From Oscillospiraceae bacterium (GTDB lineage Bacteria > Bacillota > Clostridia > Oscillospirales > WRJC01): a stretch of DNA of 64,000 nucleotides. The position numbers were made by a program, and so were the translations under genes. The notes beneath the pieces are model-generated. The model saw nothing but the letters and a program-made list of their open reading frames with translations, was not told the origin of the DNA and made no database searches. Below, in pieces: positions 2,900 through 38,850 of this stretch (position 1 is its first letter; every line of letters starts with the position of its first letter). The stretch is from positions 28,505 to 92,504 of the forward strand of contig WRMA01000001.1 in NCBI GenBank assembly GCA_009777355.1. The letters are read 5' to 3'.

Positions 2900-3574
2900 A
2901 TGAAACAAATTATTTACGCGGTCGAGGACGACGCCGCTTTACAGGAATTATACGGATATTTGCTGGAGGACGATTTTGACTGCCGCTCGTTTTATGACGG
3001 CGGAACGCTTTTCGCCGAATTGTCAAAAGCTATTCCCGACCTTATTTTACTCGATATAATGCTGCCCGGAGACGACGGATTCGCGATATTATCGAGATTG
3101 AAAGCGGACAAGAAAACTTCGCATATTCCCGTTATTATGATTTCGGCGAAAGGCGAGGAAATATCAAAAGTCAAAGGCTTGAACATGGGAGCGGACGATT
3201 ATATAGCGAAACCGTTCGGAGTTCTCGAATTTACGGCGAGAATCAAAGCGAATCTGCGTAAGAATAATAAACGGGCGGCCGAAAATATTATCTATAAAGA
3301 TATAATTATCGATTTTTCCAAACATCAGATTACGGTAAATAATAATCAGATTCAGACGACGCTCAAAGAATATAATCTGCTGCGCTTACTATGCGGAAAC
3401 GCGGGAAAAGTGCAGGTTCGGGAGGTTATATTCGATAAAGTCTGGGGAGATAATTTTATAGGGGAAACCCGGACGCTCGATATTCACATAAAAGAACTGC
3501 GTAAAAAGCTGTCGGAAGCAGAAAGTCAGGTTACGATTCAAACGATACGAGGGGTGGGATATATGCTGATATGA
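2900..3574 (+). CDS. phoP: OmpR/PhoB-family response regulator (PhoP-like)
   Basis: Receiver domain (DLILLDIMLPGDDG) plus a winged-helix C-terminus (IQTIRGVGYML). The symbol is assigned from the pst-phoU context. Confidence 0.75.
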   Translation: MKQIIYAVEDDAALQELYGYLLEDDFDCRSFYDGGTLFAELSKAIPDLILLDIMLPGDDGFAILSRLKADKKTSHIPVIMISAKGEEISKVKGLNMGADDYIAKPFGVLEFTARIKANLRKNNKRAAENIIYKDIIIDFSKHQITVNNNQIQTTLKEYNLLRLLCGNAGKVQVREVIFDKVWGDNFIGETRTLDIHIKELRKKLSEAESQVTIQTIRGVGYMLI

Positions 3575-10425: not shown

Positions 10426-10562
10426 CCTTTCTTAAATTTTTAAATTTAAATAAATATATAAAAACCGCGCAAATAATCCCGATTCAATCGCGCGGTTCGC
10501 ATACGTTAAGAACAGCGGAGCCGGCTTTTTTTTTCAAAAAAAGCGGCTGTCCAAAACATAAT

Positions 10563-10650
10563 CTTCCCTACGTTGGCATTACCCATATCAGGTTATAAGG
10601 GACAGCGGATTTTTACTTAAATCCGCATCTCAGCCCTGCGGCGCCCCCGA
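10563..10650 (-). promoter_or_regulatory. TPP (THI-box) riboswitch
   Basis: The minus strand reads GGGGCGCCGCAGGGCUGAGAUGCGG...CCGCUGUCCCUUAUAACCUGAUAUGGGUAAUGCCAACGUAGGGAAG. It contains the CUGAGA and ACCUGAU..GGNUAAUGCC..CGUAGGGAA cores. Confidence 0.9.
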
Positions 10651-10696
10651 CTATTTAATTGCGGTTATTATTTTTTATGAGTTTCAGCAAAGTTTC

Positions 10697-22399: not shown

Positions 22400-23026
22400 C
22401 TAAAATTTCGCCGAATTTTTCAGTCCGGTTTTTATTATATCTTCGAGAGGTTTCGTAAAGTCCGCGTCTTTAAGAGCGTCGCCGGCTTCGTTTCTCGAAT
22501 ATCCCAGGGCAATCAGAGCGTTTATCGCGTCTCCTCTGATATTTCCCGCGGCGGGCGTAGAATCGAACCCTCCCGGCGTAAACTGAGCGTCGGACTTACC
22601 CGATTTCTTCTGGACTGTGTTTTCTTTGTCTATTTTGTCTTTCAGTTCAAGAATTATTTTCTGCGCCGTTTTCGCGCTTACGCCCTGCGCCGTCGCGATT
22701 TCTTTATAATCTCCGGAGACGACCGCGTACGCGAATCTCTCCGGAGATAAAACGGACAGAACGGCAAGCGCTGATTTTACGCCGATTCCCGAAATAGAAA
22801 GCAGCATTAAAAAAGCGTTTTTCTCTGCCAAATCCCCGAAGCCCAGTAAATCGAGCGCGTCGTCTTTAACTACCAAATGCGTAAACAATTTAACTTGTTT
22901 TCCAATTTCGGGCAGTCTCGAATAAGTAGTATAAGTTATATTTAATTTATAGCCAACTCCGCCGCAATCGACGACCGCGAGATTCGCGTCTTTATAAGAC
23001 AGTTCGCCTTGTATATGATAGTACAT
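22400..23026 (-). CDS. ruvA: Holliday junction DNA-binding protein RuvA
   Basis: 208 aa. MYYHIQGEL..VDCGGVGYKL followed by an HhH region ISGIG. Lies upstream of ruvB. Confidence 0.9.
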   Translation of the reverse strand: MYYHIQGELSYKDANLAVVDCGGVGYKLNITYTTYSRLPEIGKQVKLFTHLVVKDDALDLLGFGDLAEKNAFLMLLSISGIGVKSALAVLSVLSPERFAYAVVSGDYKEIATAQGVSAKTAQKIILELKDKIDKENTVQKKSGKSDAQFTPGGFDSTPAAGNIRGDAINALIALGYSRNEAGDALKDADFTKPLEDIIKTGLKNSAKF

Positions 23027-23068
23027 GATTTATATATCTCCTTGATTTTTTTATATTTTAAGTTTCTA

Positions 23069-23097
23069 TTGACAAACATGAATATACGTGTTATAAT
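23069..23097 (+). promoter_or_regulatory. Consensus promoter TTGACA-N17-TATAAT antisense to the ruvA 5' region
   Basis: -35 at 23069-23074 and -10 at 23092-23097. Confidence 0.6.
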
Positions 23098-23103
23098 TAT
23101 AAT

Positions 23104-23220
23104 ATAATAAATGAAGAAGTTAAGGTAAACAGCAGAGATAATCAGTCCAGACTGCCGGGTGGACCGTTTTTCGGTTCTTGCGATGAAGGGGTGACTGTCC
23201 TTCTGCCTTAACTTCTTTTT
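23104..23220 (+). ncRNA. Candidate ~115-nt structured RNA closed by a 12-bp helix AAGAAGUUAAGG/CCUUAACUUCUU plus a U-run
   Basis: The promoter, closing helix (23114-23125 with 23206-23217), T7 tract and internal hairpins were all read directly. I recognise no known RNA class. Confidence 0.45.
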
Positions 23221-23513
23221 TTCATTCTTTTGAGATTATTGTCGTTAATTTTCATCAAATGCACTATTTCAAAGCAGTTTTTAAGTTCAGACATTTCGAC
23301 CAGCGCCAATGAATTATCTCTGTCATTTATTTTGGCGACTAAATTAATATAATTATTTTTAAGACCGGGAAAATATGAGGGATTATTATATAACGACTGT
23401 CCGAGTAAATAATTATATTCTTTTTTGTCAATTTCGGGGTGTCTCGATAAATTCCGGTCAATAATACTCTTTTTCAGCAGCACCGGCTTGCTTGATTTCC
23501 CTAGTTTATCCAA
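23208..23513 (-). CDS. 101-aa ORF (TTG start) resembling the C-terminal nuclease-like (PBECR-type) module of phage/ICE polyvalent proteins; possibly a truncated remnant
   Basis: The pattern LG..KPVLLKKSII.RN..RHPEI...NP......LVAK....N.LALVE....FEIVH matches by recall only. The frame is open upstream to 23640 with no start. Confidence 0.4.
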   Translation of the reverse strand: MDKLGKSSKPVLLKKSIIDRNLSRHPEIDKKEYNYLLGQSLYNNPSYFPGLKNNYINLVAKINDRDNSLALVEMSELKNCFEIVHLMKINDNNLKRMKKRS

Positions 23514-23640
23514 ATCTTCTTTATTCAGTTCGGGCAGTATATTATCGCGGTCAAAGTCGATACGTATATTATCGGCTTTTTTCTGTTTTTCAGCTTCTGA
23601 CGTTATTTCTGATATATTATCACTTTCTTCCTTGATTTTT

Positions 23641-24147
23641 TTATATTTTCGCGTTTAATATATTAAACAGAGAATTTGTCGATTTCGAGTGCGCGTGGCA
23701 TATACCAATCGCCAAAGCGTCCGCCGCGTCGTCCGGTTTGGGCATTTTTTCAAGATTCAATATATTCTTCACCATTGTCTGAACCTGGATTTTATCCGCT
23801 CTGCCGTAACCCACTACAGACTGTTTTACTTGCAGCGGCGTATACTCGCCTATATCGAGCCTGTTCTGATACGCGCACAGCAAAACGACTCCTCTCGCCT
23901 CGCATACTGAAATAATAGTCTTCTGATTCGTGTTATAAAATAATTCTTCTATTGCGAGGTCGTCGGGTTTATACATATCTATTAAATTTTTGATTTCGTC
24001 GTATATCGTTTTAAGACGTTCATGCACGGGGGTTTTCGGGGGGGTTATTATTACCCCGTAATTAATCGTCGTGAATTTATTTCTCTCAAATTTTAATACG
24101 CCGTAACCGACCGTCGCGAGTCCGGGGTCTATTCCCAAAATAATCAC
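23641..24147 (-). CDS. ruvC: Crossover junction endodeoxyribonuclease RuvC
   Basis: GTG start. ILGIDPGLATVGYG, then DAADALAIGICH at the C-terminus. Confidence 0.9.
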   Translation of the reverse strand: MIILGIDPGLATVGYGVLKFERNKFTTINYGVIITPPKTPVHERLKTIYDEIKNLIDMYKPDDLAIEELFYNTNQKTIISVCEARGVVLLCAYQNRLDIGEYTPLQVKQSVVGYGRADKIQVQTMVKNILNLEKMPKPDDAADALAIGICHAHSKSTNSLFNILNAKI

Positions 24148-24189: not shown

Positions 24190-24218
24190 ATTATAGCATA
24201 TTTTTGTTCCCCTGTCAA
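24190..24218 (-). promoter_or_regulatory. Consensus promoter TTGACA-N17-TATAAT for ruvC
   Basis: Hexamers read on the minus strand, ~40 nt upstream of the ruvC start. Confidence 0.6.
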
Positions 24219-24267
24219 ATTTTTTATTATATTAAAAAAAATTTTTAAAAAATTTTGTTTGACCCCC

Positions 24268-24296
24268 TTGACAAATTAAATTGACCGTGATATAAT
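24268..24296 (+). promoter_or_regulatory. Consensus promoter TTGACA-N17-TATAAT for the TetR/ABC operon
   Basis: Hexamers read directly. Confidence 0.6.
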
Positions 24297-24300
24297 AACT

Positions 24301-24329
24301 ATTGACCAGTTAAATTATAATTGGTCAAT
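24301..24329. promoter_or_regulatory. Probable TetR operator: palindrome ATTGACCA-N13-TGGTCAAT, with a third ATTGACC half-site inside the promoter spacer
   Basis: 8-bp inverted arms immediately downstream of the -10 box. Confidence 0.5.
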
Positions 24330-24357
24330 ATCAGAAAATTATTTAATAAAACCGGGG

Positions 24358-25011
24358 GTGATTTTATTGATTGGGCGGTTTGATTTATTTTACTCGCTCG
24401 AACCCGAAAAGCAGAAACAGATTATAGATTCGGCAATGACGGAGTTCGGCGAAAAAGGTTTCAGGCGGGCTTCGACTAACGCAATCGTCGAAAACGCGGG
24501 CATAAGCAAGGGCATATTGTTTTATTACTTCGGCAGCAAAGAAGAACTCTTTGATTTTTTGTGCGAATATACGCTCGAATTTTGGAAAGCTGAATACGCG
24601 CATAATTTTTCTTCAAAAAAATCCGGCGATTTTCTCGAACGCTGCAAGATTTTATCTGAATTTAAACGCAGGGCCATAACGGAGTTTCCCGTAATAATAA
24701 GATTTTTCGAGTGTATTTATCTTCCGGAAAACGAGGAGCGCATGAAAAAACATCAGGAAGCCGCGGCCGGGCTTCGCGAAGATATCAGAAGAAATCTCTA
24801 CGACGATATAGATTATTCTCTGTTTCGGGACGATATTGACCCTCAAAATATTATAAAATACACAAAATGGCTGATGGACAGTTACGAAGCTTCCGTTATG
24901 CAGAAAGTAAAAAGCGAGAATTTAAAGTACGACATGAAGAATTTCGACGAAGAATGGAAGAATTTCTATGATTTAATGGACGATTTGAGAAAAATATTCT
25001 ATAAAAATTAA
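24358..25011 (+). CDS. TetR/AcrR family transcriptional regulator
   Basis: N-terminal HTH FRRASTNAIVENAGISKGILFYYFGSKEELF. The start could be TTG at 24367. Confidence 0.85.
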   Translation: MILLIGRFDLFYSLEPEKQKQIIDSAMTEFGEKGFRRASTNAIVENAGISKGILFYYFGSKEELFDFLCEYTLEFWKAEYAHNFSSKKSGDFLERCKILSEFKRRAITEFPVIIRFFECIYLPENEERMKKHQEAAAGLREDIRRNLYDDIDYSLFRDDIDPQNIIKYTKWLMDSYEASVMQKVKSENLKYDMKNFDEEWKNFYDLMDDLRKIFYKN

Positions 25012-38774: not shown

Positions 38775-38850
38775 TGGTGCCTCCGGTCGGAATTGAACCA
38801 ACGACACGGGGATTTTCAGTCCCCTGCTCTACCAACTGAGCTACAGAGGC
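38775..38850 (-). tRNA. tRNA-Phe (anticodon GAA), CCA encoded
   Basis: The minus strand reads GCCTCTGTAGCTCAGTTGGTAGAGCAGGGGACTGAAAATCCCCGTGTCGTTGGTTCAATTCCGACCGGAGGCACCA. The cloverleaf was checked by hand. Confidence 0.95.

Follow-up and report, generated by a model that had tools for sequence, protein, structure and literature searches.

A cassette in the ruvC–ruvA junction of an Oscillospiraceae bacterium carries an LPD13 gene and a skipping-rope-like antisense RNA: a candidate phage-derived effector and RNA immunity module

What separates ruvC from ruvA in the genome of an Oscillospiraceae bacterium? In a 64,000-nucleotide stretch of its DNA (contig WRMA01000001.1, positions 28,505 to 92,504; "the window" below is this whole stretch), ruvC, ruvA and ruvB are called as open reading frames (ORFs) on the minus strand at 24147–23641, 23026–22400 and 22376–21249. 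All three are co-oriented, and 614 bp (23027–23640) lie between ruvC and ruvA, an arrangement that had been pointed out in an earlier note on this DNA and is borne out by the ORF coordinates. The gap holds an inserted cassette whose sole contents are an ORF of the LPD13 family and a small RNA encoded on the opposite strand. Both recur together in other genomes, metagenomes and viral contigs, and we lean towards reading them as an effector and its RNA immunity partner.

Insertion at the ruvC–ruvA junction

The insert is flanked by a direct repeat, TCCTTGATTTTTTTATATTTT, with two copies at 23039–23059 and 23629–23649 that are identical at 21/21 nt and lie 590 bp apart (repeat family D3). The 21-bp unit is the duplicated junction of the ruvC stop codon and the ruvA Shine-Dalgarno sequence, and deletion of one copy together with the 569 bp between the copies regains a 35-nt ruvC–ruvA spacer. 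This is the spacing seen in relatives with RuvC proteins 81–86% identical, where the junction measures 35 bp (L026) or 34 bp (L028, L029). The genes and the two repeat copies are as follows.

23641–24147, minus strand: ruvC, the host gene 5′ of the insertion; a listed ORF, with an identical protein (P0030) named RuvC in an NCBI Oscillospiraceae metagenome-assembled genome (MAG), Pfam PF02075
22400–23026, minus strand: ruvA, the host gene 3′ of the insertion; Pfam RuvA_N, HHH_5 and RuvA_C on the 99% identical copy in contig L004
23629–23649, minus strand reads AAAATATAAAAAAATCAAGGA: left copy of the 21-bp target duplication, comprising the last ruvC codons, the TAA stop and the Shine-Dalgarno sequence
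23039–23059: right copy of the 21-bp target duplication, which now provides the functional Shine-Dalgarno sequence of ruvA

The 21-nt repeat and the empty junction in relatives together show that DNA was truly inserted into a conserved junction of the operon: a cassette of about 570 bp (a 590-bp insertion) sits in the 35-bp ruvC–ruvA spacer, of which 21 bp are duplicated. A chance direct repeat is ruled out by the 21/21 identity, by the presence of the ruvC stop and ruvA Shine-Dalgarno sequence in the unit, and by the empty site in relatives. We hold this account of what the insert is with high confidence. It lends no support to the suggestion, made in the earlier note, of an orphan domain domesticated within the ruv operon, given that the same cassette is found in unrelated operons and the junction is empty in relatives. 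Close relatives that had the ORF as a normally initiated gene native to the ruv operon would have spoken against an insertion; their empty junctions show the opposite.

An insertion sequence, a miniature inverted-repeat transposable element (MITE) and an integrative element were considered and ruled out: the cassette has neither transposase nor integrase, there is no inverted repeat at both ends, and the duplication is long (21 bp). Target duplications were also sought at the other cassette sites described below, where only a degenerate one of about 45 bp (L002) was found. The 21-bp duplication is thus a lone instance from which no general rule for cassette movement can be drawn. The cassette also contains a 19-nt inverted repeat, 89% complementary, between 23068–23086 (the −35 region of the RNA promoter) and 23414–23432 (inside the LPD13 ORF). 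It lies away from the cassette ends and is probably a product of chance in AT-rich DNA.

For the host operon, the RNA hairpin and the convergent RNA promoter must disturb read-through from ruvC to ruvA. One further element of the cassette points out of it, towards ruvA.

23096–23123, minus strand: promoter-like site TTAACT-16 nt-TATAAT, 10/12 consensus positions

This site is not clearly conserved in other copies of the cassette and its surroundings are AT-rich; that it could make up ruvAB transcription, if it is a promoter, is speculative.

Other foreign DNA has entered the same junction in relatives. Contigs L025 and L026 encode an identical RuvC (P0031); L026 has an empty 35-bp junction (3005–3039), and L025 carries a 176-bp MITE-like insert (3005–3215) whose ends form the inverted repeat CCTAAATAACCAGTTAAAA ... 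TTTTACTGGTTATTTAGG, along with a duplication of TAAATAA. In L027 (RuvC 84% identical), a gene for a 325-residue APH/choline-kinase-like protein lies between ruvC and ruvA (735–1712). Foreign DNA seems to settle repeatedly at the ruvC–ruvA junction.

The LPD13 gene and the convergent RNA

The minus-strand frame in the insert is open from 23654 to 23208, giving a 143-residue frame that overlaps the final 14 nt of ruvC. The openness of this frame had been noted correctly, with its upstream limit placed at 23640 and not, as found here, within the last 14 nt of ruvC. It had likewise been stated that the first canonical start is a TTG at 23513, yielding 101 residues; this start and the peptide quoted with it are present in the frame, and no canonical start precedes codon 43. 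In Pfam, the 143-residue frame matches the polyvalent-protein domain LPD13 (PF18825; full name "Large polyvalent protein-associated domain 13") with E=5.3e-14 and 52.7 bits, where the cut-off is 27, and the match covers profile positions 18–138 of 139. No other Pfam, NCBIfam or PADLOC family and no usable PHROGs match was obtained for the ORF.

A protein database search identified 29 relatives, and PF18825 is annotated in 27/27 of the homologues that have a precomputed Pfam entry. The closest homologues are intact, stand-alone proteins of 128–167 residues that start with ATG where the insert has ATA. Three of these are 132 residues long from ATG to stop (P0002, P0003 and, counted from an internal Met, P0001), and their start aligns directly with the insert (homologue "MTTEEEKQKK..", insert "ITSEAEKQKK.."). 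Read from the ATA, the insert has no frameshift, no internal stop, and the same length as P0002 and P0003. The description of the ORF as start-less is therefore accurate at the family start, where ATA replaces ATG.

23208–23606, minus strand: LPD13 gene, 132 codons plus stop, with ATA (23606–23604) in place of the ATG of homologues
23603–23623, minus strand: mini-ORF of six codons (GTG ATA ATA TAT CAG AAA TAA) behind the duplicated ruvA Shine-Dalgarno sequence, read directly from the DNA

The ATA is also present in L004, a 99% identical and independent metagenome contig from another sample, and is therefore not a read error. All family-invariant residues are retained (N33, L35, P36, L38, N39, K51–K56, N63, H67, L83, Y84, and E124), and the motif KPVLLKK is among the invariant features of the LPD13 protein. 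Pairwise ratios of nonsynonymous to synonymous substitution (dN/dS) against three homologues are 0.06–0.11, with synonymous sites near saturation (proportion of synonymous differences, pS, 0.57–0.78). Judged from its sequence, the ORF is a genuine protein-coding gene: it represents, at full length, a stand-alone family of about 132 residues under strong purifying selection. The same length and dN/dS values contradict the alternative offered in the earlier note, that of a decaying fragment of a mobile-element protein.

Either the start codon was lost recently or translation is now leaky at best. Initiation at AUA in Escherichia coli reaches about 1% or less of that at AUG. The LPD13 gene is thus probably off in this genome, given its ATA, while the RNA gene described below looks fully functional; loss of the protein with the RNA intact is the usual order of decay in a toxin–antitoxin pair. 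The stop codon of the mini-ORF overlaps the ATA, and an ATG at this position would create AUGA stop-start coupling. A comparable ATGA overlap joins an upstream permease gene to the LPD13 gene in L002. Fusion of RuvC to LPD13 by frameshifting or read-through was also considered and is unsupported: the ORF is offset by +1 from the ruvC frame, and AUA UAA A matches no known site of frameshifting.

Convergent with the LPD13 gene, the plus strand carries a consensus promoter followed by about 115 nt that fold stably and terminate in a run of U. The antisense RNA with which the ORF was said to be paired is indeed present, and proves to be both the most conserved part of the cassette and an obligate partner of the protein.

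23069–23097, plus strand: RNA promoter TTGACA-17 nt-TATAAT, 12/12 sigma-70 consensus positions, with TG extension
23104–23222, plus strand: skipping-rope-like small RNA of about 115 nt (covariance-model match 23113–23218; 5′ end inferred from the promoter)
23116–23127/23204–23215, plus strand: RNA helix P1 (12 bp)
23132–23135/23152–23155, plus strand: RNA helix P2
23161–23166/23172–23177, plus strand: RNA helix P3
23185–23189/23199–23203, plus strand: RNA helix P4
23143–23147/23193–23197, plus strand: RNA pseudoknot of five pairs between the loops of P2 and P4
23216–23222, plus strand: RNA U-tail, the complement of the Lys-rich C-terminus of LPD13

P1 is the terminator stem, and its 3′ strand carries the complement of the LPD13 stop codon (23208–23210). 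The promoter is conserved in seven aligned copies, comprising group-A copies and the RNA-only copy described below. Between cassettes the RNA is 89–93% identical, as against 74–80% for coding DNA with saturated synonymous sites. An alignment of 16 RNAs from different loci supports P1, P2 (which is invariant), P4, and the pseudoknot: 95.4% of cells are paired, 19/26 pairs show compensatory changes, and the pseudoknot is 100% paired with 4/5 pairs covarying. These pairing and covariation values were matched by 0/500 shuffles, and slid registers did not come close. With so many G-U pairs, the structure can form solely on the strand opposite to that of the ORF. Across phyla, nucleotides of the loops and junctions are conserved (GCAGA..AAU, CUGCCG, and CGAUG).

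Rfam does not report the RNA at the gathering threshold in the whole window, nor at E≤10 in 22900–23750. Homologous RNAs match a single Rfam family, skipping-rope (RF02924; gathering score 36.7), at 32.6 bits for L022 and 28.5 bits for L014; the helices agree, as does the GAUG junction. The original description presents skipping-rope as a strongly conserved motif that has a terminator at its 3′ end and shows no self-cleavage, associated with one nearby-encoded protein domain (PMC5737381). The insert RNA shares with RF02924 a closing stem P1 that also serves as Rho-independent terminator, the three hairpins inside it, the GAUG junction, complementary hairpin loops, and a 3′ U-tail, as well as occurrence in several phyla and phages and a steady association with a nearby protein domain, here LPD13. 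It differs in that it is missed by the Rfam model, and in that a canonical match occurs in 1/17 viral loci, as a different RNA beside a different gene. This subclass also has a longer L2 and a different P3, and is always antisense, with its terminator over the LPD13 stop codon. On sequence and predicted structure, the insert RNA is best classed as a divergent skipping-rope variant below the Rfam threshold.

Spread of the pair and fold of the protein

The LPD13 family comprises 631 representatives at 50% identity among 1.84 billion proteins. In most of the 150 best of these 631, the domain lies at or near the C-terminus. It is internal in an open frame of more than 1821 residues in L024 and in proteins of 1801–5064 residues (P0182, P0213, and P0228 are among those above 1800). 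The short cassette form has been inserted behind an MR_MLE gene (L001), between or overlapping ATP-binding cassette (ABC) permease genes (L002, L003), before rnmV (L008), and before rmuC (L010). At these sites the cassette is always co-oriented with the upstream gene and begins 0–22 nt behind it, and the LPD13 gene has no promoter of its own. Conservation begins at the ATG and stops just beyond the −35 box of the RNA promoter, which defines the extent of the cassette.

More distant relatives occur in GTDB genomes of Oscillospiraceae, Christensenella, Mailhella, Brachyspira, "Proteobacteria", and "Rickettsiales". There LPD13 is either solo or the C-terminus of a phage portal protein (PF04860 or PF06381); fusions to Phage_portal or Phage_portal_3 are found in L014, L015, L017, and L023. 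IMG/VR contributes 17 further LPD13 loci, and in viral contigs LPD13 also occurs as a solo gene. Eight of the viral contigs (L031–L034, L036–L039) have frames of about 590–700 residues with an LPD13 end, as judged from the open frames. By tblastn, GenBank phages (INPHARED) gave no match to the insert protein or to P0017, and PLSDB plasmids gave none to P0017. The family is so far confined to metagenomic and MAG data. A motif, (W)[DE]ES[KE]HPR..[DN]G[KQR]F, precedes LPD13 in phage-type and portal-fused versions (P0017, P0024, L015, L016, L023, L019, and L020); the short cassette form found in the window does not have it. A role of the motif in capsid targeting or in processing is conceivable.

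The distribution of the RNA follows that of the C-terminal domain. A covariance model built from 16 RNAs finds one copy in the window, and the RNA lies directly 3′ and antisense at every C-terminal LPD13 gene of the genome and metagenome loci (19/19 modules: the window, L001, L002, two in L008, L010, and L012–L023, with L012, L020 and, weakly, L017 outside the seed). It is also present in 16/16 complete viral loci, none of which was used in building the model. Each of the 35 LPD13 loci has the RNA in antisense, with the terminator stem over the LPD13 stop codon, and no C-terminal LPD13 gene without the RNA was found among the loci examined. In the reverse direction, a scan of IMG/VR with the RNA pattern returned seven LPD13 contigs and one false positive. 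Two pattern hits, L007 and L053, were discarded as chance matches within coding regions; L053 has no covariance-model match.

Some loci depart from the simple pair. In the high-GC contig L006 (8776–8894, plus strand), the RNA, its promoter, and its terminator stand alone between a hemN-like gene and a metallo-beta-lactamase-fold gene, with the P1 and P3 pairing kept and about 25 nt of the LPD13 3′ end recognizable. L008 (879–2040) has tandem modules, in which P0015 and P0001 are identical over the first 47 residues and then differ in their C-terminal halves together with the RNA subtypes. This suggests a recombination that swapped the C-terminal half of the protein along with the RNA. L020 (186–938), like L044 with the identical sequence, has a 220-residue ORF with sub-threshold matches to PBECR3, MuF_C, and PBECR2 and, right after it in the sense orientation, a canonical skipping-rope RNA of 53.8 bits. 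The same viral contig carries an LPD13 gene with a very divergent antisense RNA, scoring 30.7 bits with our covariance model.

Partner RNAs may also be tandem or duplicated: in L038 (3371–3590) and L046 (3445–3883), two adjoining matches to the RNA model lie 3′ of one LPD13 gene. In L012 (3540–3690), the LPD13 gene P0013 stops early (..NLHWSYD*), with the Lys-rich tail in another frame up to P1; this frameshifted LPD13 copy is accompanied by an RNA that still scores 40.9 bits.

An AlphaFold2 model of the insert protein, calculated from a 26-sequence alignment, has a mean predicted local distance difference test score (pLDDT) of 91.9 and a predicted template modeling (TM) score (pTM) of 0.83. 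It comprises N-terminal helices and short strands, followed by a helix (72–84), four antiparallel strands, and a C-terminal helix. The best matches among predicted viral structures (BFVD) are MuF C-terminal, minor capsid, and PolyVal ADP-ribosyltransferase proteins (E 1e-4 to 1e-3, probability 1.0). The compact matches in the PDB, none of them significant, are RelE-superfamily toxins: BrnT (3u97; probability 0.93, TM 0.63 per target), HigB, and YoeB/ParE. ToxN and Kid/MazF-type proteins are not among the structural neighbors, and a sequence search of the PDB with the family profile returned nothing. Two invariant residues form a putative active site, His67 beside helix 57–66 and Glu124 on the last strand; Tyr84 and Asn63 are also invariant. 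No conserved C-terminal Thr or Ser was identified in the LPD13 family alignment.

The earlier note had likened the ORF to the PBECR-type modules of phage polyvalent proteins. The polyvalent repertoire and the MuF-C/RelE-like fold are as it had supposed; the family is LPD13 by profile and not PBECR. A sub-threshold PBECR2 match appears in one homologue only, the portal-fused L015 (22.4 bits, cut-off 27.1), and alignment to a PBECR3-like protein by hhalign gave a probability of 1.4%. Iyer et al. predict PBECR and MuF-C to be RNases of the BECR fold, built of an N-terminal helix and four or five strands, and report them as fusions with portal and MuF proteins (PMC5512222). LPD13 resembles them in its helix and four strands, in occurring in giant polyvalent and solo forms, and in a portal/MuF architecture with a C-terminal effector (PMC5512222). 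It is unlike PBECR in its putative His/Glu(/Tyr) site, PBECR being described with His...Thr/Ser (PMC5512222). The protein is thus LPD13 by profile and, in the predicted model, BECR/PBECR-like by fold only.

Beyond the ruv genes, the region between ruvC and a divergent TetR-family gene (24358–25011) contains two back-to-back promoters (within 24190–24330) and, at 24300–24330, a TetR operator-like 13-nt inverted repeat, TATTGACCAGTTA/TAATTGGTCAATA.

24218–24190, minus strand, and 24268–24296, plus strand: back-to-back 12/12 promoters

Only two Rfam matches reach the gathering level in the window, a TPP (thiamine pyrophosphate) riboswitch at 10547–10658 (minus strand, 66.7 bits) and a tRNA gene at 38778–38850 (minus strand).

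Function of the module and competing explanations

The reading to which we incline, with a confidence that taken as a whole lies slightly above even, is that the module joins a phage-derived effector or toxin to an antitoxin-like RNA immunity and hitch-hikes in host operons. The cassette, with its two convergent genes, would be mobile and ultimately phage-derived, and LPD13 would be translated off the host operon transcript directly behind the upstream gene. LPD13 itself would act as effector or toxin, and probably as an RNase that needs no metal and uses a His/Glu site, as its fold neighbors and its place in the portal/MuF "ejected head protein" architecture suggest. The RNA would be the immunity or antitoxin partner, binding or occupying the LPD13 domain as a structured decoy in the manner of type III antitoxins. 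A producing cell or lysogen would be shielded by it, and so close a pairing would help the module to persist as a selfish unit.

For the immunity mechanism by itself our confidence is tentative and falls somewhat short of even. The RNA-only locus L006, the lack of any RNA-less C-terminal LPD13 among the loci seen, the joint exchange of protein and RNA in L008, and the position of the RNA in the place of an immunity gene are all consistent with an antitoxin role. Direct binding is preferred over pure antisense action on account of the conserved tertiary structure, the canonical relative in the sense orientation (L020, L044), and the RNA-only locus. We infer both the interaction of RNA with LPD13 and the mode by which the cassette moves.

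Several observations weigh against this proposal. PADLOC has no match for the insert ORF, PBECR profiles do not match it even at E≤10, and the fold matches in the PDB are not significant (E>0.01); the RNase or toxin role of LPD13 is presumed from fold and architecture. The cassette contains no transposase, integrase, or terminal inverted repeats that would explain its mobility. The LPD13 copy of the insert lacks a start codon, and activity of the module in this genome is therefore not implied. Portal-fused copies of LPD13 lie in a lytic late operon, where self-protection may be needless. Physical linkage by itself would yield co-inherited variants of protein and RNA. The sense skipping-rope RNA behind a weakly PBECR-like protein (L020, L044) implies that the partner rule is broader than LPD13.

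Three other explanations account for parts of the evidence. The RNA might be the cofactor, guide, passenger, or substrate of LPD13, for example as a portal-tethered ribonucleoprotein that is packaged and ejected, loosely like the phi29 pRNA. The fusion of LPD13 to the C-termini of two different portal families would fit, as would the strict pairing with one protein domain, the tandem RNA copies in some phages (L038, L046), and the complexity of the motif, which Weinberg et al. judged to suggest a "sophisticated biochemical function" (PMC5737381). We nevertheless consider this rather unlikely, for solo cassettes sit in ordinary bacterial operons far from phage packaging genes, L006 keeps structure and promoter as would be unexpected for the cofactor of an absent protein, and the RNA has no similarity to the Rfam pRNA family or any other family of this kind. 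A little less likely still is a type I-like arrangement, in which the RNA acts solely by base-pairing with the 3′ end or untranslated region of the LPD13 mRNA, causing degradation or blocked expression, and its structure serves stability. At all 35 LPD13 loci the RNA is antisense with its terminator stem over the stop codon, a read-through mRNA (here from ruvC to ruvA) would be fully complementary to it, and its promoter is strong and constitutive while the ORF has none of its own. Antisense pairing needs no architecture of the kind observed, however: loops, junctions, and a covarying pseudoknot are conserved across phyla though the complementary mRNA is non-coding. The canonical skipping-rope RNA sits sense to its partner gene, the RNA-only L006 has no target mRNA, and LPD13 is not the small hydrophobic peptide of such systems.

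That the insert is inert debris, a decaying mobile-element fragment with an accidental antisense promoter and hairpin, functionless here and elsewhere, we regard as very improbable. The ATA at the family start, the lack of a canonical start before codon 43, and the other junk taken up by the same junction in relatives (the 176-bp element of L025 and the APH-like gene of L027) speak for it. Against this stand an ORF of full length with no frameshift or stop and with every invariant residue kept, dN/dS values of 0.06–0.11 on branches that include the insert copy, an RNA far more conserved than synonymous sites and carrying compensatory changes, and a 12/12 RNA promoter that is conserved in seven aligned group-A and RNA-only copies.

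If the module is an effector with RNA immunity, it has several known counterparts. Type III antitoxins (ToxIN, CptIN, TenpIN) are transcribed together with the toxin, as tandem repeats that precede it on its own strand and that it processes. The module would share their logic, in which RNA neutralizes an endoribonuclease by direct binding within a small, selfish two-part unit of phage–host conflict; it differs in having one pseudoknotted RNA of about 115 nt, downstream and on the opposite strand, with its own promoter and no repeats. In the type I pairs txpA/RatA, bsrG/SR4, and RalR/RalA, a small RNA runs convergently into the 3′ end of the toxin gene and overlaps it; these pairs lie in prophage regions and their toxins are usually membrane peptides. 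The convergent overlap of the gene 3′ end and stop codon is the same here, whereas the protein is a 132-residue soluble, BECR-like protein and the RNA has a conserved tertiary structure with relatives in either orientation.

The portal/MuF architecture has been read as that of toxins delivered with DNA (Iyer et al., PMC5512222; Jamet et al., PMC5576092), and in MuF polymorphic toxins immunity genes follow the toxin domains (PMC5576092, PMC12226406). With these the proposed module has in common a head-associated phage carrier with a variable C-terminal toxin domain, the expectation of a protective gene next to that domain, and copies in prophage remnants of bacterial chromosomes (PMC5576092, PMC12226406). 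Unlike them, the carrier is a portal protein or is missing, and the immunity slot holds an antisense structured RNA in place of a protein gene. Having neither RNA repeats nor an immunity protein, the module is a member of neither the type III toxin–antitoxin class nor the polymorphic-toxin/immunity class.

Part of this picture has been reported before, in that skipping-rope RNAs had already been associated with a protein domain (PMC5737381). The literature searched on LPD13 yielded nothing relevant, and the main text of Iyer et al. 2017 (PMC5512222) neither discusses LPD13 nor describes an RNA partner for LPD13 or PBECR. As far as the searched literature goes, LPD13 has not been described as the partner, nor has its fold or its fusion to portals; the same holds for the invariant overlap of the antisense RNA with the stop codon, for a subclass below the threshold, and for a cassette that moves freely.

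It is tempting to speculate further, as a conjecture we consider doubtful, that skipping-rope-class RNAs are RNA immunity factors for BECR-fold effectors (LPD13, PBECR-like) that phages mount on portal or head proteins and deliver. The two-gene unit would also spread alone as a promoter-less parasite of host operons, here ruvCAB, and RNA-only copies would represent acquired immunity to the effectors of incoming phages. If true, this would be a new kind of pairing between a protein toxin and a structured RNA antitoxin, belonging neither to type I nor to classical type III, in which the RNA is single, pseudoknotted, and driven by its own promoter.

For annotation, the lesson is that a selfish cassette of 0.6 kb, without a recombinase of its own, can be what fills an unusual gap between the genes of a conserved operon. 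By itself the insert in ruvCAB is a modest curiosity, yet it offers a direct experimental route to an orphan RNA and an orphan phage domain: one Pfam domain (LPD13) and one Rfam motif (skipping-rope, an orphan since 2017) become a single testable two-component system. Should the RNA be an immunity factor, the pair would represent an RNA-based branch of phage polymorphic-toxin/immunity biology and a new RNA antitoxin architecture.

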